NCBI GenBank assembly: GCA_019358915.1
Contig: JAHHIM010000020.1
Location: forward strand, 16,388-80,387
Direction: 5' to 3'
Source: Trichormus sp. ATA11-4-KO1
Lineage (GTDB): Bacteria; Cyanobacteriota; Cyanobacteriia; Cyanobacteriales; Nostocaceae
Length of the DNA stretch: 64,000 nucleotides
Under the pieces are notes generated by a model, which was given only the letters and a program-made list of their open reading frames with translations, did not search any database and had not been told where the DNA came from. Made by a program: the position numbers and the translations under genes. Positions 1,704 to 44,272 of the stretch are shown piece by piece; position 1 is the stretch's first letter; each line of letters starts with the position of its first letter.

Positions 1704-1750
1704 AGTCAAAAAGTCAAATATAATTGTATTAAAAATAAGTGAATTAAATA

Positions 1751-2002: not shown

Positions 2003-2043
2003 GTTTTTGACATTTGTAAAACTTTTTATATGGAAGTCAAAAC

Positions 2044-3225: not shown

Positions 3226-3229
3226 AAAC

Positions 3230-4327: not shown

Positions 4328-7300
4328 ATGGACAACACAAAAGACAAACTTTTACAACGACGATCAAAGCTTTCACCTGCTCAGCGCGCCCTGCTGGAAA
4401 AACGGCTGCGGGGTGAAGTTGATTCTCAATTAAAAGTCATTCCCAGACGTTCTCAAATAAGTCCTGCGCCCCTATCTTTTGCCCAGCAAAGGTTGTGGTT
4501 TCTTCATCAATTAGATCCCGATAATCCTTACTATAGTGAGCTAGCGTGTGTACAGCTCTTGGGTACGCTGAATATAGATGCTCTAGAAAAAAGTTTCAAC
4601 GAAATTGTGCAACGCCATGAAGCCTTACGTACTACTTTTGAGATAGTTGCAGAACAAGCAGTTCAAGTTATTCATCCTACTGTAACTGTCAGAGTTCCAG
4701 TGGTGAACTTGCGCTTAATGCCAGAAGTTGAACGACAAGTACAAATTGAGCAGTTAACCACACAGATAGCTCAAAAACCCTTTGACTTGGCAACTGCTCC
4801 GTTATTGCGGACTATGCTGCTGCAAATAGATGCACAAGAATATTTACTGCTATTCACGATTCATCATATTGTTGTTGATGGCTGGTCTATTGGATTATTC
4901 ATTCGTGAATTAGCCGCACTTTATGAAGCCTTTTCTATAGGCAAAACATCTCCTCTTCCTGAACTTCCTATCCAGTATGCAGACTTTGCCATTTGGCAAC
5001 GTCAGTGGTTGCAAGGGGAATTACAAAAGACGCAACTTGATTATTGGAAGCAACAGTTGGCAGGCGCTGCAACCTTGGTTTTACCCACAGATAGACCAAG
5101 GCCAGCAGTCCAAAGCTTCCGAGGTGCAGTGGCTTCTTTTGAGCTATCAGCAAGCTTAACTGATATGCTTAGGGATTTGAGCAACGCCGAAGGGGTAACC
5201 CTGTTTATGACTCTTTTGGCTGCGTTTCAAGCTTTACTTTACCGTTACACAGGGCAAGAAGACATTTGCGTTGGTTCCCCAATTGCAAACCGCAACCAAA
5301 GCGAGATTCAAGGGTTGATTGGTTTTTTTGTCAATACCCTTGTGCTGCGAACTCATCTTTCTGGTAATCCCTCTTTTTTGGAATTGTTGAATCGAGTGCG
5401 CGAGGTATGCGTAGGTGGGTATGCCCATGCAGATATACCTTTTGAGCAGTTGGTAGAAGAACTGCAACCAGAAAGAAACCTCAGTCATATGCCTTTGTTT
5501 CAGGTAATGTTTGCCTTACAGGAAGATACCCAAAAGGAATTGACACTACCTGGTTTAAGTTTGAATTGGCTACCTGCGGATACTCGGACTGCTAGGTTTG
5601 ATTTAACTCTGCACATTGTAGATGCTAAACCAGAATTGAGGGGGTTATTAGAATACAGAACCGATTTGTTTGATACTGCAACTATTACTCGGATAGTAAA
5701 GCATTTTCAGACTTTACTAGAAGGGATTATAGCAAATCCACAAGCAAGGTTATCCGACTTACCACTATTGACGGCTGATGAGTTACATCAGCAATTACTG
5801 GAGTGGAATAATACAAAAGTTGAATATCCTCAACAGCAATGCATTCATCAGTTATTTGAAGCGCAAGTAGAACGCACACCTGATGCAATAGCAGTAGTCT
5901 TTGAGGATGAACAGTTAACTTATTGGGAATTAAATACCAGAGCGAATCAATTAGCACACTATTTGCGATCGCTGGGAGTAAAACCAGAGGTATTGGTGGG
6001 GATTTGTGTGGAGCGTTCCTTGGATATGGTTATCGGACTATTAGCCATCCTCAAAGCTGGTGGCGCATACGTACCCCTAGATCCAAACTATCCCAAAGAA
6101 CGATTAGCATTTATCCTAAAAGACACTCAGGCTCCAGTGTTACTAACTCAAGCATCTCTTATGGAAGTAATGCCGCAACACAAAGCTCAAGTTGTTTCTT
6201 TAGATACTGATTGGCATCTGATTGAACAACAAAGTCCAGACAATTTATTCTCTCAACTAACTCCTGATAACCTGGCTTATATCATTTATACCTCTGGTTC
6301 AACAGGCAGACCCAAAGGTGTAATGATTAAACACAGTAGCACAGTTGCAATGTTGAATTGGGCAAACAAAACCTACACAATTGAAGATAGGAAAGGAGTT
6401 TTGGCATCCACTTCAATTTGCTTCGACCTTTCGGTTTTTGAGTTGTTTGTGCCTCTGTGTTGCGGTGGCAAGCTTATTTTAATTGAGAATGCCCTATATT
6501 TATCAACTTTGCCAACAGCCTTTAATGTAACCTTAATTAATACTGTCCCAAGTATAATTTTACAGTTATTCAAAAATAATGCTATTCCAACTTCAGTCCA
6601 GACTGTGAATTTAGCAGGAGAAGCACTTCACAATCAACTCGTACAGCAACTTTATTGCCAGGATAATATAAAACAAATATTTAACTTATATGGGCCTTCT
6701 GAAGATACAACTTATTCAACTTCGGCTTGGATACACAAGGGTACTAACAACACCCCACCGATTGGTTTCCCAATTCACAACACGCAGACTTATTTGTTAG
6801 ATCAGAATTTACAACTTGTTCCTATAGGCGTACCAGGAATGTTGTATGTTGGCGGTGCAGGTTTAGCCCGTGGTTATCTAAACAAACCAGAACTGACTGC
6901 GGAGAAATTTATTCCCAATCCTTACACAAAATTGCCAGGGGAAAGGTTATATAAAACTGGAGATTTAGCCCGCTATTTACCAAATGGAGAACTAGAATAC
7001 ATTGGTCGCATTGACTATCAAGTAAAAGTTCGTGGTTTCCGTATTGAAATAGGAGAAATTGAAGCATTTATTCTTCAGCATCTGGGAGTACAAGAAGCTG
7101 TAGTTACAGTTCATTCTTCGGCAACAGATTCTCAACAAATAGTTGCCTATGTAGTCCCCAAATCCCAGCAAACGCCAACGATTTCTGAACTACGCAGTTT
7201 TTTGAAAACTAAGTTGCCAAACTACATGGTGCCAACAGCTTTTGTTATCTTGCAGGCACTACCTCTGACACCTAATGGTAAGATTGACCGTAAGGCATTA

Positions 7301-9004
7301 AAAGCACCTGATACAGCAAGAAATCAAGATAAAGAACTAGTAATACCGCGTAATTGTCTAGAAGCCAAGCTGACAGAAATTTGGGTAGATGTGCTGGGCG
7401 TGGAACAAGTGGGTATTTTCGATAACTTTTTTGAATTAGGTGGGGATTCTATCCTTGCCATTGTAGTTATTACCAGAGCTAACCAAGCAGGTTTAAAACT
7501 GACCGTTAAACAGTTATTTCAACATCAAACAGTTGCCGATTTGACATCTGTAGCAGTAACAAAAAAGGTAACCCAAGCTGAACAAGGGCTGATAACAGGT
7601 TTAGTCTTTCTCACACCGATCCAGAAATGGTTCTTTGAACAAAATCTCCTCGCACCCCATCACTGGAACCAAGCAGTTTTACTAGAAGTTAAACATGTTC
7701 TTGACCTAGCTGTATTAGAAAAATCCATACAGCAATTGTTATTACACCATGATGCTCTCCGCTTACGATTTGAGCAAACAGAGTCTGGTTGGCAGCAGAT
7801 TATAGCTAGCTTAGATGTAAAAATCCCCTTAATACATTTGGATTTCTCTGATTTATCAGAAAACGAACAGGAACTAGCCATCGAAGCAGCAGCCACCAAA
7901 TTACAAGCTAGTTTGAATCTCTCAGATGGTTTACTAATGCGAGTTGCTTTGTTTGACTTAGGGTATCGACCAAGGCATTTGTTGATTATCATCCATCATT
8001 TAGTTGTAGATGGCGTTTCTTGGCGGATTTTACTGGAAGATTTGGAGACAGTATACCAACAATTCAATCAAGGCAAAAAGATACAACTGCCATCAAAGAC
8101 AACTTCGTGGAAATATTGGTCGCAATGCCTACAAGAATATGCACAATCAACTACTCTTGAGCAAGAATGGGACTATTGGCTGCGAGAATCTTGGCAACAG
8201 ATTACTCCTTTACCAGTTGATTTTTCTGACGGTGAAAATACAGTAGCTTCGACTCAAAACATCTCAATTGTTCTGACGGTAGAACAGACTCAAGCCTTAC
8301 TAAAAAAAGTGCCAAAAGCTTATAATACACAAATTAACGATGTCTTGCTCACGGCACTAGTACAAGCTTTTTATCAATGGACTGGGAAGAATTTTGTATT
8401 ACTAGCTCTAGAAGGTCATGGGCGAGAAGAAATTTTCGCTGGTGTCGATTTGTCACGCACGGTAGGTTGGTTTACATCGATTTTTCCAGTGCTATTAGAT
8501 TTGAGGGAAACGTCTCATCCTATAGAGGCGTTGAAATTAATTAAAGAGCAACTGCGGGGTATTCCCAATAAAGGCATGGGTTATGGTGTCCTACGTTATT
8601 TGAGTCAGAATAATCCAAAAGTTGAGTTATTGCGATCGCTTCCCCAACCTGAGGTAGTCTTCAATTACTTAGGTCAGTTCGATCAAACATTTTCAGACTC
8701 ATCAATATTTAAAATTTCTCAGGACGCTCAAGGACAAACACGCAATTCGTTGAACGGGGAAGCCTATATCCTCAGTATCGATGCTTTGGTAATTGATCAG
8801 CAATTAAGAATAAATTGGACTTACAGCGAAAAAATACATCGACGAAGCACGATTGAAAGACTAGCACAAGGATTTTTAGAAGCATTACAAACACTCATCA
8901 CTCATTGCCAATCTCCTGAAATTGGCGGATATACACCTTCTGATTTTCCAGAAGCAGACTTGAGTCAAGAAGATTTGGAACGGTTTTTAGAAAGAATCAA
9001 TTAA
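4328..9004 (+). CDS. NRPS C-A(Ala)-T-E; predicted D-Ala module
   Basis: C motif HHIVVDG; A pocket read by eye as DLFNNALTY (Ala type); T GGDSI; E motifs HHLVVDGVSW, EGHGRE and RTVGWFT; C-terminal YTPSDFP docking segment. Confidence 0.9.
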   Translation: MDNTKDKLLQRRSKLSPAQRALLEKRLRGEVDSQLKVIPRRSQISPAPLSFAQQRLWFLHQLDPDNPYYSELACVQLLGTLNIDALEKSFNEIVQRHEALRTTFEIVAEQAVQVIHPTVTVRVPVVNLRLMPEVERQVQIEQLTTQIAQKPFDLATAPLLRTMLLQIDAQEYLLLFTIHHIVVDGWSIGLFIRELAALYEAFSIGKTSPLPELPIQYADFAIWQRQWLQGELQKTQLDYWKQQLAGAATLVLPTDRPRPAVQSFRGAVASFELSASLTDMLRDLSNAEGVTLFMTLLAAFQALLYRYTGQEDICVGSPIANRNQSEIQGLIGFFVNTLVLRTHLSGNPSFLELLNRVREVCVGGYAHADIPFEQLVEELQPERNLSHMPLFQVMFALQEDTQKELTLPGLSLNWLPADTRTARFDLTLHIVDAKPELRGLLEYRTDLFDTATITRIVKHFQTLLEGIIANPQARLSDLPLLTADELHQQLLEWNNTKVEYPQQQCIHQLFEAQVERTPDAIAVVFEDEQLTYWELNTRANQLAHYLRSLGVKPEVLVGICVERSLDMVIGLLAILKAGGAYVPLDPNYPKERLAFILKDTQAPVLLTQASLMEVMPQHKAQVVSLDTDWHLIEQQSPDNLFSQLTPDNLAYIIYTSGSTGRPKGVMIKHSSTVAMLNWANKTYTIEDRKGVLASTSICFDLSVFELFVPLCCGGKLILIENALYLSTLPTAFNVTLINTVPSIILQLFKNNAIPTSVQTVNLAGEALHNQLVQQLYCQDNIKQIFNLYGPSEDTTYSTSAWIHKGTNNTPPIGFPIHNTQTYLLDQNLQLVPIGVPGMLYVGGAGLARGYLNKPELTAEKFIPNPYTKLPGERLYKTGDLARYLPNGELEYIGRIDYQVKVRGFRIEIGEIEAFILQHLGVQEAVVTVHSSATDSQQIVAYVVPKSQQTPTISELRSFLKTKLPNYMVPTAFVILQALPLTPNGKIDRKALKAPDTARNQDKELVIPRNCLEAKLTEIWVDVLGVEQVGIFDNFFELGGDSILAIVVITRANQAGLKLTVKQLFQHQTVADLTSVAVTKKVTQAEQGLITGLVFLTPIQKWFFEQNLLAPHHWNQAVLLEVKHVLDLAVLEKSIQQLLLHHDALRLRFEQTESGWQQIIASLDVKIPLIHLDFSDLSENEQELAIEAAATKLQASLNLSDGLLMRVALFDLGYRPRHLLIIIHHLVVDGVSWRILLEDLETVYQQFNQGKKIQLPSKTTSWKYWSQCLQEYAQSTTLEQEWDYWLRESWQQITPLPVDFSDGENTVASTQNISIVLTVEQTQALLKKVPKAYNTQINDVLLTALVQAFYQWTGKNFVLLALEGHGREEIFAGVDLSRTVGWFTSIFPVLLDLRETSHPIEALKLIKEQLRGIPNKGMGYGVLRYLSQNNPKVELLRSLPQPEVVFNYLGQFDQTFSDSSIFKISQDAQGQTRNSLNGEAYILSIDALVIDQQLRINWTYSEKIHRRSTIERLAQGFLEALQTLITHCQSPEIGGYTPSDFPEADLSQEDLERFLERIN

Positions 9005-9024
9005 GAAGGTAAAAATTAAACAAA

Positions 9025-10422
9025 ATGAGAGAAAATATCGAAGATATATACCCCCTATCTCCCATACAGCATGGTATGCTGTTTCACAGGTTGCAAGCCC
9101 CAGAAATGGGACTATATCATATACAATTAGTCTATACTTTCAGTGGCAATCTCAACATTGCTGCATTTATATACGCTTGGCAGCAAGTCACAAACCGCCA
9201 CACAATCTTGCGTACAAGCTTCTATTGGGAAGAATTAGATAAACCATTACAAGTGGTGCATCAACAAGTAGAAGTACCTGTAGAGTACCAAAATTGGCGA
9301 CAACTTGAGCAATTTGAACAACAAGAGCGTTTAAAGTCTTTTCTTGATAGCGATCGCCTACAGAGTTTTGATTTTTCCCAAGCACCTCTAATGCGTGTGG
9401 CTATCATCCAAATTCAGGAAAACTCCTACTATCTTGTTTGGAGTCATAACCTAATTATTCTAGATGGTTGGTCATATCCATTAGTATTAAATGATGTGAT
9501 TGAAATTTATGAAGCGTGCTGTCTTGGTCAAGATGCGCCCTTATCCAAGGGTAGTTGCTTTAAAGATTACATAAAATGGCTCAAACAGCAAGATTTAGTA
9601 AAAGCTGAGGAGTTTTGGCGACAGCAACTCCGTGGAGTCAAACAACCAACTCCTTTAACTAACTTATACTCAAATACCTCATCCAATGAAGAAAACTATG
9701 AGGATATACAAATTAGCCTATCTCAAGAAACTACAAATAATCTAAATTTATTGGCAAGACAGCATCACCTCACCATGAATACTCTAGTTCAGGGAGCTTG
9801 GGCTATACTTCTGTATTACTACAGTGGCAAAAATGATGTAGTCTATGGCTGTACTACTTCTGGTCGTCCAGTAGATTTAGAGGGTTCGGAATCAATGGTA
9901 GGGGAAATGGTTAATACCTTACCAGTACATGTCAAGGTAAACATGGATGAGTATTTATTACCTTGGCTGCAAGAATTACAAAATCAATTAATAGATATTC
10001 GTGAGTATGAATATTACCCGTTGGTAAATATTCAAAAATGCAGCAAAGTGCCAGGAAATGTGCCTTTATTTGAAAGCATCGTGGTGTTTGAGAATCAAAA
10101 AACAGGCAAATTTTTGGAACAATGGGGAAGTTTAAACATCTGTGAGAGAATTAACTTTTACAAAACTAACTATCCTCTAACTATAGTTGGATATCCTGGC
10201 TCAGAACTGACACTCGGAATTAATTATGATTTTCACCGCTTTGATGCGGCAACAATCATGAATATATTGGAACATCTAAAGAGACTGCTTGAAGGCATAG
10301 TGACGAATCCGCAAGTATGTCTTCAAAAATTATTGTTGTTTATAGAACAAAAACGCCACATTGAATTATTAAGTTTAGAAACAGAAATGTCATTAGATTT
10401 TGATTTTGTGTCAACCAATTAA
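9025..10422 (+). CDS. Free-standing DCL-like condensation domain with a non-canonical active site
   Basis: IEDIYPLSPIQHGMLFH, RHTILRTSF, SGRP and TNYPL; active site reads WSHNLIILDGWS. Confidence 0.85.
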   Translation: MRENIEDIYPLSPIQHGMLFHRLQAPEMGLYHIQLVYTFSGNLNIAAFIYAWQQVTNRHTILRTSFYWEELDKPLQVVHQQVEVPVEYQNWRQLEQFEQQERLKSFLDSDRLQSFDFSQAPLMRVAIIQIQENSYYLVWSHNLIILDGWSYPLVLNDVIEIYEACCLGQDAPLSKGSCFKDYIKWLKQQDLVKAEEFWRQQLRGVKQPTPLTNLYSNTSSNEENYEDIQISLSQETTNNLNLLARQHHLTMNTLVQGAWAILLYYYSGKNDVVYGCTTSGRPVDLEGSESMVGEMVNTLPVHVKVNMDEYLLPWLQELQNQLIDIREYEYYPLVNIQKCSKVPGNVPLFESIVVFENQKTGKFLEQWGSLNICERINFYKTNYPLTIVGYPGSELTLGINYDFHRFDAATIMNILEHLKRLLEGIVTNPQVCLQKLLLFIEQKRHIELLSLETEMSLDFDFVSTN

Positions 10423-10496
10423 TGTCAGAAGGCATTATGTTAACATTTGACATCTTCCTAAAAATATTGTGTAATTCATTCAAAAATAATCACACC

Positions 10497-11753
10497 ATGA
10501 ATATATTTGAAAAATGTGAATCAAACGTCAGGAGCTATTGCCGTAATTTTCCCGACATCTTTCATAGAGCTAAAGGTTCTCTCATTTATTCTGACTCAGG
10601 TAGAGAGTATATTGATTTTTTTGCGGGAGCAGGTGCTTTAAATTATGGACATAATCATGACTATATCAAACAAAAGGTCATCTCATATTTAGAAGCTGAT
10701 GGCATAGCACATGGTTTAGATATGTATACTTCAGCCAAGGAGAAGTTTTTATCCAAATTTCATGAAATTGTCTTAACTTCAAAAAAACTCGATTATCGCG
10801 TTCAGTTTTGTGGTCCAACAGGAACAAATGCAGTAGAAGCGGCTTTAAAACTAGCGAGAAAAGTCAAACAAAGAACAGGCATATTCTCCTTCATGGGAGC
10901 ATATCATGGCATGACATTAGGCAGCCTATCTATTAGCGGCAACACTACAATTAAATCGAGTGCAATTGGTACATCCAGTAATGTCACATTTATGCCTTAT
11001 CCCTATGGATTCATGGCAAGTTTTGATACAATAGAATATATAGAGTCGGTGTTAAATGATGTCAACTCCGGAATTGAAAAACCAGCAGCAATCATCTTTG
11101 AAACAGTGCAAGCTGAAGGTGGAGTTGTTGTCGCTCCTATTGAATGGATGCAAAGATTAAGAAATTTGTGTGACGAGAATGATATTTTATTGATCTGTGA
11201 TGATATTCAAGTCGGCTGTGGTCGAACTGGCTCTTTCTTTTCTTTTGAAAGAGCAGATATTATTCCTGATATGGTAGTACTTTCTAAATCTATTAGTGGA
11301 TATGGTTTTCCCATGTCACTATTATTGATTAAACCAGAATTAGATATCTGGGAACCGGGTGAACATAATGGCACTTTTCGGGGTAATCAATTAGCATTTA
11401 TCGGCGCAACAGCAGCTTTAGAGTATAGAGAAAGTAGTAATCTTGAACAAGATGTCAAAGGTAAAGAGCTTCTTTTAAAAAAATTTCTTACTCAAGAAAT
11501 AGCGCCAATCAATGAAAATATAGCTATACGTGGAATTGGTATGATTTGGGGTATTGATGTAAAAAATTTTGGGGGTCAGAGTTTCGCCAAAAGTATCACA
11601 TCGCGTTGCTTTGAATTAGGTGTAATAGTTGAATGTGCAGGTAGAAATGATACTGTAATTAAAATTTTACCACCTTTGATAATTGATACAACCACCTTAG
11701 AAAAGGGTTGCTCAATTATTAAAAAAGCTTTTGATGATTGCTTGTCAAATTAA
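10497..11753 (+). CDS. ectB: Diaminobutyrate-2-oxoglutarate transaminase (EctB/PvdH-like, class III PLP), supplying 2,4-diaminobutyrate
   Basis: ESNVRSYCR, FFAGAGALNYGHN, GPTGTNAVEAALK, DDIQVGCGRTG, LSKS and GEHNGTFRG. Start MNIFEK at 10497 preferred to 10422. No ectA or ectC in the window, so a homolog rather than an ectoine operon. Confidence 0.88.
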   Translation: MNIFEKCESNVRSYCRNFPDIFHRAKGSLIYSDSGREYIDFFAGAGALNYGHNHDYIKQKVISYLEADGIAHGLDMYTSAKEKFLSKFHEIVLTSKKLDYRVQFCGPTGTNAVEAALKLARKVKQRTGIFSFMGAYHGMTLGSLSISGNTTIKSSAIGTSSNVTFMPYPYGFMASFDTIEYIESVLNDVNSGIEKPAAIIFETVQAEGGVVVAPIEWMQRLRNLCDENDILLICDDIQVGCGRTGSFFSFERADIIPDMVVLSKSISGYGFPMSLLLIKPELDIWEPGEHNGTFRGNQLAFIGATAALEYRESSNLEQDVKGKELLLKKFLTQEIAPINENIAIRGIGMIWGIDVKNFGGQSFAKSITSRCFELGVIVECAGRNDTVIKILPPLIIDTTTLEKGCSIIKKAFDDCLSN

Positions 11754-11799
11754 ATTGACATCCGTTCACACTTCAAAAAAACACTTATCAGGAGAAAAT

Positions 11800-14568
11800 A
11801 TGATGCAGACATCATACTTTAATGACTTATTATCTCAAAGAATTTACTGGCTAAATAAGTTGTCAGGAGAACTACCAGAAACAAATCTGATGCTGGATTT
11901 TGTCAGACCTTTAGTTTCTAGTAATAAAAACAAATCTCTTAGCTTTAACTTATCAAATGACTTATCTCAAGCCATTATTAAGTTAACTCAAGGTTCTTAC
12001 TTTTCCACTTACTGGGTACTAGTATCTGCATTGAATATCTTGCTGCAAAAATACACTCAAAATAATGATGTTATTGTGGGAATACCTATATATGAACAAA
12101 TTGGTACAGATTGTGTAAGTAGCAAAGTAATTCCTTTGAGGACTCAGGTAAATCCCCAAGTTTTATGCAAAGATTATCTTTTAACAGTTAAAAAGGAAAT
12201 TATCAGTGCTTTCAACAATCAAAACTATCATTTTGATGAATTAATTCAGTTGTTATATCTGCCTACAGTTCCTAATCGTTGCTCACTCTTTGATATAGTA
12301 ATTTTATTGGAAAATATTCATGATAAAAAGCATTTAGGTCAGCTTAATAATGATATTACAATTTCCTTTTCAGTCAACCCTGAAGGTATTAATGGCTATA
12401 TTGAGTATAAAGAAGATTTATTTAAAGATGAAAATATAAAATTGGTAAGTAGATATTATACTAATGTTATTGCAAATCTGATTGATAACTTAAATGTCAA
12501 AATATCGGATATTGCTTTATTAAAAGACGCAGATAAACACCAGCTATTAACAAAATTCAATGACAATAGTAAAGACTATCCAATTGAGCAGACAATTAAT
12601 CAATTATTTGAACAGCAGGTAGCCAAAAATCCCAACAAAATAGCTGTTATTCATAACTCAAACAAATTAACTTATCAAGAACTCAATCAAAAAGCTAACC
12701 AAATTGCCAAATTATTGCGGAAATCAGGAATTAAGAAAGGTGAGTTTGTAGGAATTTTTAAAAGCCGTGATCTCAATTTTTTGGTAGCGATTCTGGCAGT
12801 ATATAAAGCAGGTGGAGCATACGTACCTATTGATAGTACTTATCCGCCAAATCGAATTCAATATATGCTATCTAATAGCAATGTCAGGTTTTTATTCACA
12901 GATTTTTCACTACTAAATGTTTTAGAACAATTGGTGGGAGAGTGTGAAAAATTGGAGTCTATTATTTGTTTAGATGATGTAACTCCTGAACATCTATCGC
13001 TTACAAATCAGTCTAATTTAAATATATATAATAAATATAATTATTATCAGTTACCTCATGACAACATAGAAAATATTAATAATGCTGTAGACCCAGCTTA
13101 TATGCTTTATACTTCTGGGTCTACAGGACTACCCAAAGGGGCAATTGTCAGACATGACGGTGCAATTAATCATATTTATGCTCAATTTGATGCTTTAGAA
13201 TTAAATGAAGAGTTTTGTTTCCTGCAAAGTGCGCCTGCTTCAACTGATATTTCTGTTTGGCAATTTCTGGCACCAATTTTAATTGGAGGAAAGACTGTAA
13301 TTATCGATATTGAAACTGTGGCAATTCCTGAAAAATTATTTAAAGTAATTAAATCCGAGAAAATTACAGTTGTAGAATTAGTACCAACATTATTTGGAGG
13401 TTTACTAGAGTATACTTCCCAACTACGAAGCCATGAAAGAGTATTACCAGATTTAAAGTGGATGATGTTATCTGGTGAATCTGTTTCAATTCAATGGGTA
13501 AATAAATGGTTGGAAATGTACCCAGAAATTAAAATTGCTAATGCTTATGGACCGACAGAGGCCTCTGATGATATTACTCAATTAATTGTGGACAAGCCTT
13601 TTCCTGAGAACCAAAGAACAGTTCCCATTGGTAAACCATTAGCCAACTTAAATCTCTATATTTTAGATGAGGAAATGCAATTATTACCTATTGGCGCTCC
13701 TGGAGAAATTTGTGTATCGGGAATTGGTGTAGGTAATGGATACTGGAAAAACGAAGAAAAAACCAAATTAAGTTTTGTTCCTAACCCCTTTACAGATGCT
13801 AATAATGATTTCCCGGGAAATTGCAGAGATTTAATTTATAAAACTGGAGATTTAGGAAGATGGCTACCTGATGGCAATATTGAATTTCTGGGACGTATTG
13901 ATCATCAGGTAAAAATTCGTGGTTTTCGGGTAGAATTGGGTGAAATTGAAACGTTTTTAGGTCAACATCCACTCGTACGTGAAAATATAGTTTTAGTTCA
14001 GCAAGAAGAAACAGGTAACGCTCAATTACTTGCTTATGTGGTGGCAAAAACGGAAGTAGTTCCTAGTATTAGTGAATTGCGTAGCTTTTTGAAGGAAAAA
14101 TTACCTGATCACATGATTCCTTCTATTTTTGTAATGTTGGAAAATCTTCCGTTGGCACCAAGTGGTAAAGTAGACCGTAAAACTTTACCTCAAGCAGATA
14201 ATCTGCGTCCGGAACTAGAAACAGCTTATATATCTCCGCGAAATGAGATAGAGCGAATAGTTGCCGATATTTGGCAGAAAATACTGAAAGTAGAAAAAGT
14301 CGGTATTCAAGATAACTTTTTTGACCTTGGTGGTCATTCGCTAAATATGCTTCAGGTTTACAGTAAACTGCGGGAACTTTTTAAAGCTGACTTAGCAATA
14401 ACTGATCTGTTTAAATATCCCACAATTAACTCAATATCTAGATATTTAAGTCAAGAAGAAGATAATAATATCCTTGACAAACAAAGTAATGAATTAAACG
14501 AAGAATTGGCAGTAGGCAAAATTAGATTAAAACAACGATTTTTACGCAATCAACAACAAAATACCTAA
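11800..14568 (+). CDS. NRPS (half C domain)-A(Dab-like)-T
   Basis: Begins at YWLNKLSGELP (C-terminal lobe of a C domain only). A pocket DIWEMSADD resembles the pyoverdine Dab pocket DIWELTADD; T GGHSL. AGGAG precedes ATG 11800. Confidence 0.85.
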   Translation: MMQTSYFNDLLSQRIYWLNKLSGELPETNLMLDFVRPLVSSNKNKSLSFNLSNDLSQAIIKLTQGSYFSTYWVLVSALNILLQKYTQNNDVIVGIPIYEQIGTDCVSSKVIPLRTQVNPQVLCKDYLLTVKKEIISAFNNQNYHFDELIQLLYLPTVPNRCSLFDIVILLENIHDKKHLGQLNNDITISFSVNPEGINGYIEYKEDLFKDENIKLVSRYYTNVIANLIDNLNVKISDIALLKDADKHQLLTKFNDNSKDYPIEQTINQLFEQQVAKNPNKIAVIHNSNKLTYQELNQKANQIAKLLRKSGIKKGEFVGIFKSRDLNFLVAILAVYKAGGAYVPIDSTYPPNRIQYMLSNSNVRFLFTDFSLLNVLEQLVGECEKLESIICLDDVTPEHLSLTNQSNLNIYNKYNYYQLPHDNIENINNAVDPAYMLYTSGSTGLPKGAIVRHDGAINHIYAQFDALELNEEFCFLQSAPASTDISVWQFLAPILIGGKTVIIDIETVAIPEKLFKVIKSEKITVVELVPTLFGGLLEYTSQLRSHERVLPDLKWMMLSGESVSIQWVNKWLEMYPEIKIANAYGPTEASDDITQLIVDKPFPENQRTVPIGKPLANLNLYILDEEMQLLPIGAPGEICVSGIGVGNGYWKNEEKTKLSFVPNPFTDANNDFPGNCRDLIYKTGDLGRWLPDGNIEFLGRIDHQVKIRGFRVELGEIETFLGQHPLVRENIVLVQQEETGNAQLLAYVVAKTEVVPSISELRSFLKEKLPDHMIPSIFVMLENLPLAPSGKVDRKTLPQADNLRPELETAYISPRNEIERIVADIWQKILKVEKVGIQDNFFDLGGHSLNMLQVYSKLRELFKADLAITDLFKYPTINSISRYLSQEEDNNILDKQSNELNEELAVGKIRLKQRFLRNQQQNT

Positions 14569-14591: not shown

Positions 14592-17500
14592 ATGAAAGTC
14601 TCAGCAGATTTAAGTAATATAACTGGTTTAGAAATAGCGATTATTGGTATGAGTGGCTGTTTTTCTGGCGCTCAAAATATTGAGGAGTTTTGGCAAAATC
14701 TGCGAGATGGAGTGGAATTAATCCATAGATTTTCCGATCAAGAATTAGAAAAATTAGGTATAGAAGCTGCCTTATTAAAAGACCCAAATTATGTTAAAGC
14801 CGAGGGTGTAGTTAATGGTATAGACTTATTTGATGCTTCATTCTTCGACATCAGTCCGAGGGAAGCTGAAGTTATGGACCCTTCACTGCGTTTTTTCTTG
14901 GAACATTCATGGAAAGCACTTGAAGACGCAGGTTATAGCTGTGAAGCCTATAAAAAACCAATTGCAGTCTATGCCGGTGCAAGTTTTGACAGTTATCTAC
15001 TTAATATATATTCAAATTACGAGCTTGTAGCCTCTCTTGGTGATAGACAGATAGAAAAAGGAACTTCTCCAAGTTGTGTTACTACACTTACTTCTTATAA
15101 ATTAAACTTACAAGGGCCGAGTTATACAGTTCAAACCACCTGCTCCAGCTCATTAGTTGCTGTACATTTAGCTTGTCAAAGTTTGCTCAGTGGTGAGTGT
15201 AATATTGCTTTAGCCGGAGGAGTTTCAATATCGACAGCAGATGGTTATTTATATCAAGAAGGAGGAATTGAATCACCCGATGGACATTGCCGTGCTTTTG
15301 ATGCAAAAGCTGCGGGAACCGTCAGAGGCAGGGGTTTAGGTGTTATCGTTCTCAAGCGTTTAGAAGAAGCGATCGCCGATGGAGATACCATCCATGCTAT
15401 TATTAAAGGCTCTGCTATTAATAACGATGGGTCAGATAAAGTTAGCTACACGGCACCCAGCGTCAATGGTCAAGCCAAGGTAATTAGAGCCGCTCAGGTA
15501 ATGGCTGAGGTCGAACCCGATACCATTACCTATATCGAAGCACACGGCACTGGAACTGCTTTAGGTGATCCCATTGAAATATCTGCGTTAACACAAGCTT
15601 TTCGGACTAAAACACTCAAAAAAGGCTTTTGTGGCATTGGTTCTGTGAAAACTAACATAGGACATTTAGATGCAGCTGCAGGAATCGCAGGTTTGATTAA
15701 GACTGTACTAGCTTTAAAACACAAACAAATTCCGCCTAGTTTGAACTTTGAAGAACCATCACCCCAAATAGATTTCGCCAATAGTCCTTTTTATATCAAT
15801 CACAAATTATCTGAGTGGAAAACTAACGGTATCCCTCGCCGTGCAGGTGTTAGTTCCTTCGGTTTTGGCGGCACAAATGCCCATGTGATTTTGGAAGCAG
15901 CTCCAGTAATTGAACCCTCCAGTCCTTCTCGTCCCTGGCAATTATTATTACTTTCAGCTAAGACGAATACAGCACTGGAAACTGCTACCGAAAATCTGGC
16001 TAATCATCTCAAAAAGCATCCAAATTTAAATCTCGCTGATGCTGCTCATACTTTGCAAGTGGGGCGCTGGACTCTGAATCATCGCCGCATGGTAGTTTGC
16101 CAAAATCAAGAAGATGCAATTAAGGCACTGCAAGACCCGCAAAGAGCATTCATCCATTATCAAGAACCTTGTAATCGCCCAGTTGCGTTTATGTTTTCTG
16201 GGCAAGGTTCGCAATATGTAAATATGGGTCGGGAATTATACGACAGCGAAATTATATTTAGAGAACAAGTTGATTACTGCTGCAAACTGCTTAAACCTCA
16301 CTTAAAATTAGACTTGCGTATAGTTCTTTATCCCAACGAAGAAACATCTCAAGCAGCAACACAAAAATTGCAGCAAACAGCAATTACTCAACCAGCCCTG
16401 TTCGTCATTGAATACGCTCTTGCTAAGTTATGGATGACATGGGGTGTACGCCCACAGATGATGATTGGTCACAGTATAGGAGAGTATGTAGCTGCGACTT
16501 TGGCTGGAGTGTTTTCTTTAGAAGATGCTTTATTCATAGTAGCCACAAGAGGAAAACTCATGCAGGAGTTACCTGGTGGTGCTATGCTCTCAATTCAGCT
16601 TCCAGAAAAGGAAGTACAAAAATTCCTAGAAAAAGAAATATCTCTAGCTGCAAGTAATGCGCCTTCTTCCTGCGTGGTATCTGGTACCACAGAAGCAATA
16701 GAGAACTTGCAACATAAATTACAACAAATAGGTGTAAGTTGTAGGCCTTTGCATACTTCCCATGCCTTTCATTCTCCAATGATGACATCCGTCATTGAAA
16801 GCTTTGTGCAATTGTTACAAACAGTCAAACTCAATCCGCCTCAAAGTCCTTTTGTGTCAAACGTTAGTGGAACTTGGATAACAACAGCCCAAGCAACAGA
16901 CCCCAATTATTGGGCAAAACATTTAAGGCAACCTGTACGTTTTTGTGAAGGAATTATTGAGTTAGCTAAAACCCCAGAAATATTATTCTTAGAAGTAGGC
17001 CCTGGAAGGACTTTAAGCACTTTTGTTAAACAACAACAAAAAGCAGAATCTTTAGTACTGACCTCAATGCGCCATCCCCAAGAGCAGCAGTCTGATGTCG
17101 AATTTTTATTGAATAGTTTAGGTAAGCTATGGCTAGTGGGGGTGAAAGTAGATTGGTCTGGTTTTTACTCCTATGAGCGTCGTCATCGCATTCCTTTACC
17201 AACTTATCCGTTTGAACGCCAGCGTTACTGGATTGAGGTAAATAAAAACGCGACTCTGGCTATGAAGCAACAGCAATCGACAGACAAAAAGCCAGATATT
17301 GCTGACTGGTTTTACATTCCTCGTTGGAAAGAATCTACACCGCTCCAGCTTTTTCCCCAAGAGAAACTAGTAGAACAAAAATTATGTTGGTTAGTGTTTG
17401 TTGATACCTATGGAGTGGGCACAGAAATTGCCGAACGACTCAAACAACAAGGTCAGGATGTAATTAGCGTCAAATTTGCAGATAATTTTGCAAAAATTAG

Positions 17501-19328
17501 TGACTGTATATATACAATTAATCCTCAGCAAAGGGATGACTATGATAGTTTGCTGCAAGCATTACAACAAAAGAATTGGATTCCACAAAGAATTGCCCAT
17601 TGTTGGAGCGTTACTCCCAACGATGTTGTATCTAGTCAAGAGCTAGACGAACAAACACAAAATCAATTTTTTGAAGATTTTCAGTATCTCGGTTTCTGGA
17701 GCTTGCTTTTTTTGGCGCAGGCATGGGGAAAACGAGATATTAAGAATTGTTTGAAGTTGATGGTCGTAACTAGTAATTTATATGATGTCACTGGTGAAGA
17801 AAAATTATGCCCCTCAAAGGCAACCTTATTAGGTCCATGTAAGGTAATTCCCAAGGAATATTCCCATATAAATTGCTGTACTATTGATATAGTAATTAAC
17901 TCTGCAAAAACCCTATTAGAACCCAAAGTTTTAAATAATCTCATCCTAGAATTTACAGCAGAGCCAAGTAATGACATAGTTGTCTATCGTGGCAATCGTC
18001 GCTGGATTCAATCCTTCGAGCCTGTGCGTTTAGAGCAGAGCATAGCTGATAAAACTAAGTTAAGGGAGGGAGGGGTTTACTTAATTACTGGTGGATTAGG
18101 TGGCATTGGTTTAGTATTAGCAGAACACCTAGCAAAGACTGTGCAGGCTAAATTGGTGCTGGTGGGACGCAAGCAACTTCCTGAAAAAGATAATTGGTCT
18201 CAATGGTTAGCAACTCATGATGAGCAAGATAAGGTGAGCCAGATAATTCATCATGTGCAATTATTGGAGAGTTTTGGTGCAGAAGTTTTGGTAATTAGTG
18301 CTGATGTAACTAATTTCGCACAAATGCAATCTGTAATTGCTCAGTCAGTAGAAAAATTTGGTCAGATTCATGGTGTAGTCCATGCAGCTGGTGTTGCTGG
18401 TGGAGGTATCATACAACTCAAAACCCAGGAGATAGCAAATAAGGTACTAGCACCAAAAGTTAGAGGAACAATAGTACTCAAGCAAGTTTGTCAGAGAATT
18501 AATCTAGATTTCTTGGTGCTGTGCTCATCTCAAAGCTCTATTTTGGGTGAATTTGGACAGGTTGATTATTGTGCAGCTAATAACTTTTTAGATGTATATG
18601 CCTATAATGTTAATAAATCTGGACTGTTAACAATATCAATCGACTGGGACACTTGGCAAGAAGTCGGTATGGCAGTGGAAACTGTTGTCCCAAATGAAAT
18701 TAAACAAATAAGGGAAAAAGAGCGAAATAAAGGAATCAAGTCTCAAGAAGGAATCGAAGCTTTTAATCGTATTTTGTCAGTTAATCTACCTCATGTTATT
18801 GTATCGACACAAGATTTTGCAGCTTTAATTGAGCATAATAATTCTTTCAAGTATCTCGAAGAAGGATTAGCATCTTTAGAAGATAAATTAGCTTCAACAA
18901 GCCTTTCTCAAGCAATCCATCCCCGTCCTCATCTACGTAATGATTATGTTGCTCCTCGCAATGAAGAGGAAGTAATTGTGGCTCAAATCTGGCAAAATTT
19001 GCTAGGAATTAAACAGATAGGTATTTATGATAATTTTTTTGAATTGGGAGGAGATTCCTTATTAGCCACTCAACTTTTTTCTCGGTTACATAAAGAGTTT
19101 CCAGTCAAACTGTCTTTGCATAGCTTTTTTGCTGCGCCCACTATCATTGAACAAGCCTTAATAGTTAAACAGAGTCACAATTCAGGAGAAAATAGTAACC
19201 TCAAAATGATAGAAAGAATCGAGCGAAGTAATGAACAACAAACATTAGCCAAGCTTGATGAAATTTCTGATCAAGAAATTGAGCTATTACTTAATAATAT
19301 GTTAGCAAGCAAAGAGGCTAACCAATGA
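14592..19328 (+). CDS. Type I PKS module KS-AT(malonyl)-KR-ACP
   Basis: KS TTCSSS, EAHGTGT and NIGHL; AT GHSIG and HAFH; KR TGGLGGIG and YCAAN; ACP GGDSL; no DH or ER. Confidence 0.93.
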   Translation: MKVSADLSNITGLEIAIIGMSGCFSGAQNIEEFWQNLRDGVELIHRFSDQELEKLGIEAALLKDPNYVKAEGVVNGIDLFDASFFDISPREAEVMDPSLRFFLEHSWKALEDAGYSCEAYKKPIAVYAGASFDSYLLNIYSNYELVASLGDRQIEKGTSPSCVTTLTSYKLNLQGPSYTVQTTCSSSLVAVHLACQSLLSGECNIALAGGVSISTADGYLYQEGGIESPDGHCRAFDAKAAGTVRGRGLGVIVLKRLEEAIADGDTIHAIIKGSAINNDGSDKVSYTAPSVNGQAKVIRAAQVMAEVEPDTITYIEAHGTGTALGDPIEISALTQAFRTKTLKKGFCGIGSVKTNIGHLDAAAGIAGLIKTVLALKHKQIPPSLNFEEPSPQIDFANSPFYINHKLSEWKTNGIPRRAGVSSFGFGGTNAHVILEAAPVIEPSSPSRPWQLLLLSAKTNTALETATENLANHLKKHPNLNLADAAHTLQVGRWTLNHRRMVVCQNQEDAIKALQDPQRAFIHYQEPCNRPVAFMFSGQGSQYVNMGRELYDSEIIFREQVDYCCKLLKPHLKLDLRIVLYPNEETSQAATQKLQQTAITQPALFVIEYALAKLWMTWGVRPQMMIGHSIGEYVAATLAGVFSLEDALFIVATRGKLMQELPGGAMLSIQLPEKEVQKFLEKEISLAASNAPSSCVVSGTTEAIENLQHKLQQIGVSCRPLHTSHAFHSPMMTSVIESFVQLLQTVKLNPPQSPFVSNVSGTWITTAQATDPNYWAKHLRQPVRFCEGIIELAKTPEILFLEVGPGRTLSTFVKQQQKAESLVLTSMRHPQEQQSDVEFLLNSLGKLWLVGVKVDWSGFYSYERRHRIPLPTYPFERQRYWIEVNKNATLAMKQQQSTDKKPDIADWFYIPRWKESTPLQLFPQEKLVEQKLCWLVFVDTYGVGTEIAERLKQQGQDVISVKFADNFAKISDCIYTINPQQRDDYDSLLQALQQKNWIPQRIAHCWSVTPNDVVSSQELDEQTQNQFFEDFQYLGFWSLLFLAQAWGKRDIKNCLKLMVVTSNLYDVTGEEKLCPSKATLLGPCKVIPKEYSHINCCTIDIVINSAKTLLEPKVLNNLILEFTAEPSNDIVVYRGNRRWIQSFEPVRLEQSIADKTKLREGGVYLITGGLGGIGLVLAEHLAKTVQAKLVLVGRKQLPEKDNWSQWLATHDEQDKVSQIIHHVQLLESFGAEVLVISADVTNFAQMQSVIAQSVEKFGQIHGVVHAAGVAGGGIIQLKTQEIANKVLAPKVRGTIVLKQVCQRINLDFLVLCSSQSSILGEFGQVDYCAANNFLDVYAYNVNKSGLLTISIDWDTWQEVGMAVETVVPNEIKQIREKERNKGIKSQEGIEAFNRILSVNLPHVIVSTQDFAALIEHNNSFKYLEEGLASLEDKLASTSLSQAIHPRPHLRNDYVAPRNEEEVIVAQIWQNLLGIKQIGIYDNFFELGGDSLLATQLFSRLHKEFPVKLSLHSFFAAPTIIEQALIVKQSHNSGENSNLKMIERIERSNEQQTLAKLDEISDQEIELLLNNMLASKEANQ

Positions 19329-25084: not shown

Positions 25085-25105
25085 TGCAAAAAACAGGTTT
25101 TGAAT

Positions 25106-28100: not shown

Positions 28101-28366
28101 TTCTCAGCATTCGCATTGTTGCTAAAGCCAATCAAGCGGGTTTACAACTTACCCCCAAGCAGATGTTTGAATATCAGACAATTGCCGAACTCGCAGCCGT
28201 GGTGCAGGTAAATCAAGAGAAGCAACTGGAAGAGGAAATTCCGTTGACACCCCCTCAACCTCCGTCTCACAACAGCGCAAGTTATACACCCTCCGACTTT
28301 CCGCAAGCAAATTTAAACCAAAAAGATTTAGATAATTTTCTGACAAAACTCAATCAAAAAAAATGA
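25106..28366 (+). CDS. NRPS interface(C-like)-A(Asp)-T with a vestigial, deleted E domain
   Basis: GFRLSPQQKHLW start; LSALIAD in place of HHxxxDG; A pocket DLTKIGHVG (Asp); T GGDSI; then PLTP..YTPSDFP. Alternative TTG start at 25100. Confidence 0.88.
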   Translation: MQKQQISGFRLSPQQKHLWLLQQNDLTAPYRVQCAVLITEKLKTDVLKTALQNVVNQYEILRTTFSFLPGMEIPLQVIVDNYNISLTEFNFTDLSWQEQESKIESLLTEIKTVHFNLENNPPFQAYIVSLSSEKYILILNLSALIADSSTLKYLINKISTSYSACLQGQDISNEPIQYADIAEWQNELLDSEESELGKEYWRKQDITSIDNLHLWFENQQIETSEFQPQCISLTINNDLVKQIESLTHIYNVNKCDFLLACWLIMLWKITRQPDMFIGVASDGRKYEELDQALGLLTKYLPLCFHLEAEFKFSEILKQVTESANNAYEWQEYFTWEETFKSEAFCPFSFEFAENYSVADLSFSLYKQYSCIDKFKINLICIDKSDSLITELHFDANLYNTQDIQTLSEQFKTLLEDAIANPEATISQLNILSDRTLQKILVEFNNTTVDYPSNKCLHQLFEEQVARTPEQIAVIFEQQQLTYTQLNARANQLAHYLRQHGVGSEVVVALYMERSLELIIGLLAILKAGGAYIPLDPAYPQERLAWMLADAKVPILLTQQQLVKTLPEHSAQVICWDQEEDAIAHQSQENPHSSVNPENLVYVLFTSGSTGKPKGVAVEHRQLSNYLNAIVQTLDLSGCNSFAHISTFAADLGNTIIFPSLCTGGCLHIVSSERISNPEALADYFHQHPIDCLKIVPAHLAALMTASQPEKILPRQRLILGGEACNWQLIEQIQQLTTECRIFNHYGPTETTVGVLTYPIEPGKTPLNSNTVPIGRPIPNTQIYILDSCLQPVPIGVPGELHIGGASVTRGYLNHPDLTNQKFITNPFIKTGCLYKTGDLARYLPDGNIEFLGRIDQQVKIRGYRIELGEIEIVLKQHPSMREAVVICHEEQTGNKRLIAYVVVKTQSALNNTHLREFLQEKLPQYMLPSVFMQLQALPLLPNGKINRQALPVPDTSKAEFAVAPRTQVEEVLAGIWADILELPQVGIYDNFFEVGGDSILSIRIVAKANQAGLQLTPKQMFEYQTIAELAAVVQVNQEKQLEEEIPLTPPQPPSHNSASYTPSDFPQANLNQKDLDNFLTKLNQKK

Positions 28367-29784
28367 AAACAGAAAACATCGAAGATATTTACGAACTGTC
28401 ACCAATACAAAAAGGGATTCTGTTTCACAGCTTATTTGCTCCGGAATTGGGACTGTATTTTTTTCAGATGCCCTTTGTTTTGCGTGGTCATCTTAATGTT
28501 GCAGCTTTTGAGCAAGCTTGGCAAGAAGTAGCAGCTAGACACACAATCTTACGCACTGGTTTTTATTGGGAAGACATTAACAAACCACTACAAGTGGTGT
28601 ATCGAGAAATCCAAATAACTCTAGATGAGCATGATTGGCGGGAAATAGATTCTAGTCAACAGCAACAGCAATTAAAGTCATTTCTGGAGAGCGATCGCCA
28701 GCGAGGCTTTGATATGTCTCAAGAATGTTTAATGCGTCTGAGTTTGTTCCGCCTCACAGATGATTGTTATCAATTTGTTTGGAGCCGACACTTTATCGTT
28801 TTAGATGGGTGGTCAGTACCTATAGTGCTGAATGAGGTAATTCAAATTTATGAAGGACTTTGTCAAGGTAAGCAAGTATCGTTAACACCCAGCATTCCCT
28901 ATCGGCATTACATCAACTGGTTGCAAAAGCAAAATATATCTGAAGCAGAGGTATTCTGGCGACAAGCATTGCATGGTTTAAAAACCCCTACTTCCTTACA
29001 AAAGTTAAATGCAAAAAATCTTTCTCCCCAGGAAGCAAAATATGAAGAACAACGCATCACTGTATCGACAGCAACCACAACAGCCCTACAGTTTCTAGCA
29101 AGACAGCATCAGCTGACGCTGAGTACACTTTTTCAGGGATTATGGGCTATTCTTTTGAGTCACTATAGTGGTGAAAAAAAAGTCCTTTATGGGTGTACTG
29201 TTGCTGGTCGTCCTATCGAACTAGTCAGAGAAGAACCACTTTTAGGATTATTTGTTAACAGCTTGCCTGTATGGGTGGACGTGGACGCTGAACAATTTCT
29301 GCTGGTGTGGCTGAAGCAACTTCAAAAACAAATAGTTGAAATGCGCCAGTATGAATGGACACCATTGGTAGAGATTCAAGGATGGAGTGAAATACCACGT
29401 AGCTTACCTTTATTTGAGAGCATTTTAGTCTATGAAAACGCACCAGTAGAGAAAATTTTACAAGAAGGGCATAGTATTATAGATATCTCAAATTCATCTA
29501 TATTCTCTGATTCAAGTACTTTTTATAAGACTAACTATCCTATCGCAATAGCTGTTTATCCAGGTTCCAGTTTTTGTATTGGCATTGATTATGATTTCCG
29601 CCGCTTCGACGCTGCAACAATTACTGGCATATTGCAGCATTTTGATATCTTACTCCAAAACATAATAAATCATCCTGAAGTGCGTATTCAGGAATTATCT
29701 TTGCTGACGGATCGAGAGCAAAACATCTCTGTGATGTTGGAAAAACAAATAATATTTAATTTTAATTTAACTGCGTGCAATTAG
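28363..29784 (+). CDS. Second free-standing DCL-like condensation domain with a non-canonical active site
   Basis: IEDIYELSPIQKGILFH, RHTILRTGF and TNYPI; active site WSRHFIVLDGWS; clear paralog of 9025..10422. Confidence 0.85.
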   Translation: MKTENIEDIYELSPIQKGILFHSLFAPELGLYFFQMPFVLRGHLNVAAFEQAWQEVAARHTILRTGFYWEDINKPLQVVYREIQITLDEHDWREIDSSQQQQQLKSFLESDRQRGFDMSQECLMRLSLFRLTDDCYQFVWSRHFIVLDGWSVPIVLNEVIQIYEGLCQGKQVSLTPSIPYRHYINWLQKQNISEAEVFWRQALHGLKTPTSLQKLNAKNLSPQEAKYEEQRITVSTATTTALQFLARQHQLTLSTLFQGLWAILLSHYSGEKKVLYGCTVAGRPIELVREEPLLGLFVNSLPVWVDVDAEQFLLVWLKQLQKQIVEMRQYEWTPLVEIQGWSEIPRSLPLFESILVYENAPVEKILQEGHSIIDISNSSIFSDSSTFYKTNYPIAIAVYPGSSFCIGIDYDFRRFDAATITGILQHFDILLQNIINHPEVRIQELSLLTDREQNISVMLEKQIIFNFNLTACN

Positions 29785-44267: not shown

Positions 44268-44272
44268 AATTT

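Follow-up and report, generated by a model that had tools for sequence, protein, structure and literature searches.

The 64,000-nucleotide stretch of contig JAHHIM010000020.1 from the cyanobacterium Trichormus sp. ATA11-4-KO1 that we analyzed (the window) carries a long, single-strand hybrid polyketide synthase (PKS)/nonribosomal peptide synthetase (NRPS) cluster, as annotated with Pfam. In this cluster a free-standing condensation (C) protein without the catalytic histidine of HHxxxDG, free C1, is followed by an adenylation-thiolation (A-T) protein that retains only the C-terminal lobe of a C domain (half-C-A-T). Our preferred reading, to which we give about an even chance (roughly 0.5), is that free C1 catalyzes condensation in trans, independently of the His and while docked on a repurposed C-lobe, within a portable cassette for the incorporation of 2,4-diaminobutyrate (Dab). 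The coordinates of the features discussed are collected in Table 1.

Free C1 (P0001) is a full-length condensation domain, matching PF00668 over profile positions 2-449 of 456 (E = 6.5e-96). Its motif reads W-S-H-N-L-I-I-L-D-G-W-S, compared with W-S-K-H-H-L-I-L-D-G-W-S in canonical relatives, with Asn at the first His and Leu at the second, catalytic one; an earlier reading of the window from its sequence alone (the sequence-only reading) had claimed this replacement of the catalytic His by Leu, and both the translation and the DNA bear it out. A strain-specific lesion can be set aside as its cause: the second His is missing in all 44 closest homologues (P0004-P0047, 66-89% identity), so its loss is not a chance event. 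The best-matching solved structures are McyB C1 (8hlk, E = 9e-121; ~50% identical, with HHHIILDGWS as its motif) and, in PvdL, the C domain ahead of the last A domain, with bacitracin synthase 3, the N-terminal C domain of TycB and SrfA-C completing the top set (E = 9e-121 to 2e-67); the LCL domain of TycC6 was matched at only 1e-27. We take McyB C1, PvdL C3, bacitracin synthase 3, TycB and SrfA-C to be DCL domains, which follow E domains and accept D-configured donors. Within its own genome, free C1 shares 49% identity with a second free-standing C protein (free C2) but just 25-28% with the remaining C and E domains, and it sits directly after the E domain of a C-A-T-E protein. As its motif departs from HHxxxDG, we file it as derived from, and working like, a DCL domain, and not as a canonical member of that class. 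Residues D147, G148, W149, S150 and N297 are invariant across 68 free-C sequences, and four residues of the C-terminal tail (L451, E452, E454 and F459) are conserved at 81-96%. Against 10 orthologues, the median ratio of nonsynonymous to synonymous substitution rates (dN/dS) is 0.17, close to the 0.18 of the A-T part; given this ratio and the kept core motifs, the His-less protein is a selected, functional one and no decaying gene.

A word-index search for homologues of free C1 (255-814 amino acids, E <= 0.001) returned 1629 proteins; the best 120 of these are all about 460-490 amino acids long, and every named source organism among the matches is cyanobacterial, in a list that, like our other homologue lists, is biased toward relatives of the query. 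The motif classes of 120 proteins of at least 440 amino acids were HH (48), HL (21), NL (20), HM (14), HF (12), SL (3), NI (1) and NF (1). A C-domain phylogeny, which the sequence-only reading had suggested, nested the free C proteins among integrated DCL-type domains: in this tree of 151 rows, built with FastTree only, they form a clade of 130 rows (SH-like support 99) that lies within the integrated, HH-bearing DCL domains and holds all stand-alone forms plus two C-terminally fused ones. On this tree HH against non-HH requires at least two changes, all of them inside this clade, to which the repeated loss of the second His is confined. When HH proteins were contrasted with non-HH proteins (48 HH, 59 L/M/I-type, 13 F-type), differences appeared only at alignment positions 141, 143 and 144. 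A compensating catalytic residue elsewhere in the His-less proteins was considered and rejected, as the contrast of the 120 sequences changes only at or beside the His. The integrated relatives nearest the free clade precede Gly-type A domains.

Other departures from the motif were seen among related loci. Four (L092, L093, L097 and L104) have F/V/L-N-H-I-I-I/L-D-G-W-G, in which the first His is lost and the second retained (compare WSFNHIIIDGWG); a C-terminally fused relative (L086, 1544-6151) has R-H-F-I-I-A-G-G-W-S, in which the motif Asp is lost; and integrated DCL-A(Gly) modules in L078, L139 and L098 show the rare variants K-H-N, N-H-Q and N-Y-H; loss of a His may be tolerated where the acceptor is small or unhindered.

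The partner protein is as truncated as the sequence-only reading had described. In the open reading frame at 11731-14568, which does contain YWLNKLSGELP, the Condensation profile is matched just at positions 189-456 (residues 31-273), and AMP-binding begins at residue 293. The true start is probably the ATG at 11800, because an AGGAG box lies 7 nucleotides upstream, and from there the half domain is about 262 amino acids long. Its closest solved match is the C-lobe of TycC6 (residues 271-519, E = 3.3e-22), and among the domains of the window it resembles LCL lobes (1e-29) more than the free C proteins (1e-7 to 1e-10) or the C-like, I-like domains of the Asp modules (about 1e-6). Mean column identity in the alignment of 38 half domains (A2) is 64%, His174 (LLENIH) is invariant there, and column identities are 0.665 for the half domain, 0.675 for T and 0.795 for the A core. 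With a dN/dS of 0.27, the half domain is, by these sequence measures, under selection. The AlphaFold model of the half-C-A-T is confident over residues 42-250 but not over the first 41.

We surveyed the pair across 110 loci, comprising 22 one-genome-per-species contigs, 8 sampled cyanobacterial genomes and 80 metagenome contigs (L071 being the window's own contig), and removed identical C domains, which left 60 complete free or C-terminally fused C domains. The next domain protein is a half-C-A-T in 54 of these 60 unique cases; of the other six, four lie at a contig end or are of a C-TauD type, and two (L108, L138) are followed by a full C-A-T. Among the free ones, the half-C-A-T partner is found irrespective of motif class (HH 17/18, Hx 19/21, xx 14/14 and unclassified, with motifs reading N-H (WSFNHIIIDGWG), 3/3). 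Inside the 54 cassettes, an EctB gene is present in 39, a JmjC gene in 15 and neither in 14. This is a conserved cyanobacterial cassette, consisting of a free DCL-type C protein, an optional JmjC protein, an EctB-type Dab aminotransferase and a half-C-A-T. One HH-type sister cassette (L072) has a half-C-A-T 76% identical to that of the window. As HH sister cassettes have the same partner, the two-protein design is no result of His loss; the sequence-only reading, which had proposed a two-protein condensation device built around the His-less C protein, thus holds for the pairing but not for a tie between the design and the lost His.

The C domain is sometimes fused to the end of an upstream NRPS or PKS protein (L032, L033, L086, L104). 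The L104 protein (5552-11404) carries the cassette C domain at the C terminus of a PKS module (KS-AT-KR-ACP-C), so the donor can be a polyketide on an ACP, and a D-aminoacyl chain is not required. No fusion of C to half-C-A-T occurs in the examined loci. A fused C-half-C-A-T form among integrated modules was sought and rejected, none of 45 having an extra ~270 amino acids between C and A, and the best identity to P0001 among 120 listed longer proteins was 56%, weak evidence of absence with 8000 candidates scored. A separate case was noted in a high-GC metagenome contig (L118, 7412-9979), where an 855-amino-acid protein whose A domain follows a truncated C-lobe appears to be a loading module and has no free C upstream, an instance of the C* remnant already known.

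As the sequence-only reading had noted for the first case, no canonical HHxxxDG C domain is present in the window, by Pfam and motif reading, for the junction from the D-Ala module to the next module, and by the same means no alternative C domain is present for the junction from an Asp module to the second DIWE-code module. The sole release domain in the cluster is the terminal R of the protein at 36446-40801, and the assembly line would be interrupted if free C1 were taken away. With no other C domain at these junctions and a single release point at the end of the line, the conserved, selected free C must pass the chain on. On our preferred reading, the second His is dispensable in this family.

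We modeled the complex of free C with the half lobe alone; the inputs were a 68-row alignment of free C (A3) and a 38-row alignment of half-C (A2). The prediction gave ipSAE values of 0.74, 0.75 and 0.78, with 0.00 for the best of three controls, a partner pLDDT of 81-82 and at least 95% contact agreement between runs; the mark applied is passed by 116 of 157 solved complexes and by 2 of 215 mismatched pairs, a calibration that is only rough here, where our own alignments were used. An interaction of the two proteins, for which the sequence-only reading had proposed such modeling, is thus predicted. On the free C side the predicted interface is formed mainly by the tail (440-462), with 409-417, 213-217 and 265-268, and on the half lobe by residues 6-19, 61-73, 98-101, 124-140 and 147-151. 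Both the motif region of free C (residues 142-150) and His174 of the half domain lie outside it. The model supports docking of free C through its conserved tail onto the half lobe, and no shared active site is indicated. A composite active site was rejected as unsupported, His174 and the free C motif both lying off the predicted interface.

These results bear on an explanation in which no docking takes place: the half lobe would be a recombination scar that stabilizes the Dab A domain and its selectivity through a C-lobe/A interface effect, and free C would find its partner in another way. C* domains, truncated forms in front of A domains, have been described and are considered inactive, and C-lobes tune A-domain selectivity, according to the portions of PMC7253712 and of preprint 10.1101/2021.08.23.457306 available to us. 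The L118 loading module, with its half-C-A-T and no free C upstream, fits such a scar, as does the lack of special conservation among the interface residues. Yet the complex prediction clears the mark while its three controls all stay at 0.00, the tail motif of free C is conserved family-wide, and the monomer model shows disorder over the N-terminal 41 residues of the half lobe, of which positions 6-19 nevertheless take part in the predicted interface. Further, C is never fused to the half-C-A-T and yet nearly always adjoins it. We consider a scar without docking unlikely.

The assignment of the A domain to Dab draws on its neighbor and its pocket. Between free C1 and the half-C-A-T lies an aminotransferase gene, which the sequence-only reading left unmentioned, whose product (10422-11753) scores 576.9 bits against the NCBIfam equivalog TIGR02407, above the cut-off of 552.2. 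The A-domain code DIWEMSADDK combines D235 with E278, D330 and D331. The pattern DIWE[MI]x[AV]DDK recurs in all 55 partner rows with a complete A domain (not de-duplicated; 3 more rows were too short, and 8 other proteins had been caught by a loose filter), a co-occurrence with putative Dab-type A domains of the kind that the sequence-only reading had proposed to survey. A DIWE-type code occurs in 0 of 45 integrated DCL-A modules. From the neighboring EctB gene and the acidic, shallow pocket, the substrate is most likely L-2,4-diaminobutyrate. β-Ala would be a less likely substrate, because D235 is kept, three further pocket residues are acidic and the EctB cut-off is passed. A search of solved structures with the A domain gave no Dab-specific nearest neighbor, LgrA being on top.

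Taken together, we propose the following sequence of events. The stand-alone DCL-type C protein would accept the D-aminoacyl or peptidyl chain carried by the T-E module upstream of it, while the EctB-type aminotransferase would make Dab, with a JmjC hydroxylase added in some cassettes. Of an old LCL-type C domain, the Dab A-T protein would have kept just the C-terminal lobe, at its own N terminus, and this lobe, lying outside the catalytic center, would serve as a platform for the A domain and as a docking site for free C. Free C would bind it through the tail (about 440-462) together with the helix that ends its own C-lobe. It would then join D-Ala to Dab by an amide within its own tunnel, with no second His in the HHxxxDG position. 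Catalysis would come from positioning the two thioesters, possibly aided by the second amine of the acceptor. Of this account, the data show the anatomy, the conservation, the co-occurrence, the purifying selection and the lack of another C domain, whereas docking is a prediction, and catalysis without the His, Dab as the substrate and the choice of amine that is acylated are inferred. That the His is dispensable here alone may be explained by this second amine acting as a base or by the side-chain amine being the nucleophile. Mutation of the second His does not always kill C-domain activity, and a C domain with HQxxxDM is active, as stated in the accessible part of PMC11546977. As a broader and clearly tentative generalization, which we think doubtful, the orphan C-lobe could be an unrecognized kind of NRPS docking domain that recruits a trans-acting C protein by the C-terminal tail of the latter, and the second His could be dispensable for peptide-bond formation whenever the acceptor is a diamino acid, through the second amine as base or through a side-chain nucleophile that leads to an isopeptide or cyclic amidine.

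The side-chain route is the core of a distinct explanation, put forward in the sequence-only reading, in which free C and half domain form a special device that acylates the gamma amine of Dab to give an isopeptide with a free alpha-amine; the loss of the His, whose normal role is to position the alpha-amine, would reflect the change of nucleophile. The motif is unusually variable only in the Dab-dedicated family (HH, NH, HL, HM, HF, NL, SL, NI, NF and one AGG), 38 of the 41 motifs read in integrated DCL domains keep both His, the complex model predicts docking on the half lobe, and the A pocket hints at a substrate with a second amine. Set against this, HH and His-less cassettes share partner, A code and downstream modules, as in L072, so that nothing ties His loss to a change of regiochemistry. 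In the model, moreover, the half-lobe residues are not close to the active site of free C. We regard such an isopeptide device as improbable.

Quite unlikely, too, is a catalytically dead free C that serves as a scaffold, like the I domains of β-hydroxy-Asp siderophore synthetases or the X domain of glycopeptide synthetases, to hold carriers or a tailoring enzyme such as JmjC while the amide forms by uncatalyzed aminolysis or another route: the second His is indeed replaced by hydrophobic residues, even the motif Asp is lost in L086, His-less C-like domains precede both Asp A domains of the same cluster, and tailoring genes lie exactly between free C and half-C-A-T, but free C shares 50% identity with a DCL domain that works and just 25-27% with the I-like domains of the window, its C5 motif and other tunnel residues are invariant, unlike those of the I-like domains, JmjC occurs in just 15 of 54 cassettes, and neither junction has an alternative C domain.

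Several observations weigh against our preferred reading of free C1 as a docked, His-independent condensation enzyme. A C domain with Leu, Met or Phe at the position of the second His is not known to condense. HH is 100% conserved inside the HH-bearing free-C lineages (48/48), which suggests that the His matters there and hence that the His-less lineages may have shifted function. In copy 2 of the pair, the upstream module is a C-A-T without an E domain, although free C2 is DCL-like. The docking score expresses model confidence and is not a measurement; the A domain, absent from the complex model, might cover the same face of the half lobe, and the predicted docking may echo the packing of C-A linkers on C-lobes of solved structures. 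The interface is no more conserved than the rest (0.676 versus 0.661 for half-C, 0.603 versus 0.709 for free C). The AlphaFold model of the whole half-C-A-T is moderate (pLDDT 67.6, pTM 0.48), and over C-lobe plus A it superposes only loosely on the C-A didomains of PvdL, McyB, ObiF1 and Txo1, with root-mean-square deviations of 9.7-11.7 Å that are too loose for claiming a canonical C-lobe/A platform. The Dab assignment, for its part, draws on an adjoining EctB gene and on pocket reasoning; the DIWE code strings had no exact occurrence in the literature searched, where a looser search gave unrelated words only. The cyanochelin C cluster pairs a transaminase with a β-Ala module, as far as the accessible text of preprint 10.64898/2026.07.24.740629 goes.

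Table 1. Features of the free C/half-C-A-T pairs and of the adjoining modules, in positions of the window
Feature	Position	Strand	Evidence
Donor module C-A-T-E, Ala-type code DLFNNALTYK; would supply a D-configured donor	4328..9004	+	Pfam; hand-read code
Free-standing DCL-type condensation protein, free C1 (P0001), 465 amino acids	9025..10422	+	Pfam; solved relatives; dN/dS
Degenerate active-site motif N-L-I-I-L-D-G in place of HHxxxDG	9448..9468	+	DNA aac cta att att cta gat ggt
Predicted docking element: conserved tail (residues 440-465) at the C terminus of free C1	10342..10419	+	Conservation; predicted interface
Class-III aminotransferase, EctB type (diaminobutyrate--2-oxoglutarate transaminase), precursor supply	10422..11753	+	TIGR02407
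Half C domain: C-terminal lobe only, LCL-like, degenerate C5, shortened latch	11800..12585	+	Pfam; TycC6 match; dN/dS
A-T part, A code DIWEMSADDK (acidic pocket, Dab-like)	12586..14568	+	Pfam; code reading
Downstream PKS module KS-AT-KR-ACP; would extend the Dab thioester	14592..19328	+	Pfam; identical order in many related loci
Free C2 (P0003), motif R-H-F-I-V-L-D-G	28363..29784	+	49% identity to free C1
JmjC/Cupin_8 hydroxylase between free C2 and its half-C partner	29865..30755	+	Pfam
Second half-C-A(DIWEMVADDK)-T, fused to C-TauD	30908..36034	+	Pfam; N-terminal half-C; code

The cluster around the pair begins with the end of a PKS module (KR-ACP), followed by genes for a 3-hydroxyacyl-CoA dehydrogenase, an 83-amino-acid ACP, an acyl-CoA dehydrogenase and FkbH. 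It continues with C-A-T-E, free C1, EctB, half-C-A-T and KS-AT-KR-ACP, then with C-A-T-C, TauD, C-like-A-T, free C2 and JmjC, and ends with half-C-A-T-C-TauD, C-like-A-T-R and an aldo/keto reductase. An E-type motif, IIIHHLVVDGVS (HHLVVDGVS), stands at residue 1219 of the donor protein, and free C2 retains the first His with Phe instead of the second. The A codes, read by hand in order, are DLFNNALTYK (Ala), DIWEMSADDK, DILQLGMIWK (Gly), DLTKIGHVGK (Asp), DIWEMVADDK and DLTKIGHVGK (Asp); both the position scheme and the keys from code to substrate (Ala-, Gly-, Asp-type) are ones that we assume. The protein at 19325-24010 was considered as one ending in an E domain and this was rejected: its last domain (about 22580-24007) is an LCL-like C domain with TIHHIVSDAWS, 53% identical to the C domain of the first module, so that the protein is C-A(Gly)-T-C, with a separate TauD gene next.

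I-like domains at 25100-26450 and 36446-37800 open both Asp modules; they are without both His and without the C5 motif (SALIADSS, PSLCADSW), and a TauD, in one case free and in the other fused, precedes each I-like/Asp module. These C-like domains presumably correspond to the "interface" domains of Reitz et al. 2019. The cluster repeats one layout four times, that is, a trans C domain, a tailoring gene and a C-like adaptor fused to A-T. An Asp module that comes after a TauD, whether fused or free, and reductive release of the product follow the same logic as in published cyanochelin clusters, to judge from the available sections of PMC12628792 and preprint 10.64898/2026.07.24.740629. The Asp module before free C2 (25100-28366) is a C-like-A-T of 1088 amino acids; its counterparts in L055-L059 have ~1529 and would be long enough for an additional E domain. 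At 840-4300, the 3-hydroxyacyl-CoA dehydrogenase, the discrete ACP (1751-2002), the acyl-CoA dehydrogenase and FkbH, among which no O-methyltransferase was seen, resemble a pathway to a hydroxymalonyl-ACP extender unit. Directly past the cluster, at 43017-47145, are a DUF4331 protein, a TPR protein and a DsbD_2/NicO-like membrane protein, a trio that may be metal-related and linked to a siderophore-type product.

In the literature searched, we found no description of a cassette of free DCL and half-C-A(Dab)-T, of repeated loss of the catalytic His in a C domain essential for elongation, or of docking of a tail on a half lobe. The role of the second His in HHxxxDG is a long-standing open question in the NRPS field, as put in the accessible part of PMC11546977, and it becomes testable with wild-type proteins in this family, where HH and His-less C proteins, both natural and under selection, work side by side with one and the same partner module. 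If the half lobe is a true docking site, it provides a natural precedent for an NRPS module split at the C/A boundary and bears on engineering cuts within C domains. The cassette also assigns the EctB-type Dab gene of cyanobacteria to a defined step of the assembly line in siderophore clusters of the cyanochelin-like kind.

The separate elements of this system (DCL domains, stand-alone C enzymes, truncated C* remnants and His-less C-like adaptors) are already known. With DCL domains such as McyB C1 (8hlk) and the PvdL C domain before a Dab-activating A domain (9lcq, 9up2), free C1 shares the fold, motifs C1-C7, ~50% identity to McyB C1 and the place after an E domain; it differs in being a separate protein with a conserved extra tail, in having Asn/Leu for the His pair, and in its A-T partner, which has a C-lobe of its own. 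Interface (I) domains of β-hydroxy-Asp siderophore synthetases were reportedly described by Reitz et al. in PNAS in 2019, a study cited in the antiSMASH 8 paper. Like free C1, I domains are C-like without HHxxxDG and occur in siderophore-type clusters with a layout of trans C, tailoring gene and adaptor. Classification of free C as an I domain was nevertheless rejected: rather than being fused before an Asp A domain and having a TauD partner, free C stands on its own ahead of a module with the DIWE code, and the I-like domains of the window lie elsewhere. In identity, free C is nearer to McyB C1 (~50%) than to these I-like domains (25-27%). Moreover, free C is not fused to an A domain, keeps C5, is close to catalytic DCL domains and is the sole candidate for forming the bond, and the adaptor of the Dab module is a half domain of LCL origin and no full I domain.

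The half lobe itself recalls the truncated C* at loading A domains, such as that of ThdA, which is likewise a C-terminal lobe only and non-catalytic in the portion of PMC7253712 available, where an effect of the C-lobe on McyB A domains is cited from Meyer et al. 2016. In contrast to C*, the half-C stands at an elongation step, in mid-line after a donor module and a free C (54/60), is always paired here with a trans C protein, occurs twice in the one cluster and is a predicted docking site. VibH is likewise a discrete condensation protein that acts in trans, with HHxxxDG and a free amine acceptor, as described in the accessible part of PMC11546977, whereas here the acceptor is presumably carrier-bound Dab on the half-lobe partner; VibH was not among the 35 solved sequences matched by free C1 at E <= 1e-10. 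Finally, Cy domains (DxxxxD) and the C domain of streptothricin ORF18 (HQxxxDM) also form amides without the HH pair, according to the same part of PMC11546977, but those carry other polar residues at the motif, whereas the free C proteins, in other respects ordinary DCL domains, have Leu, Met or Phe there.

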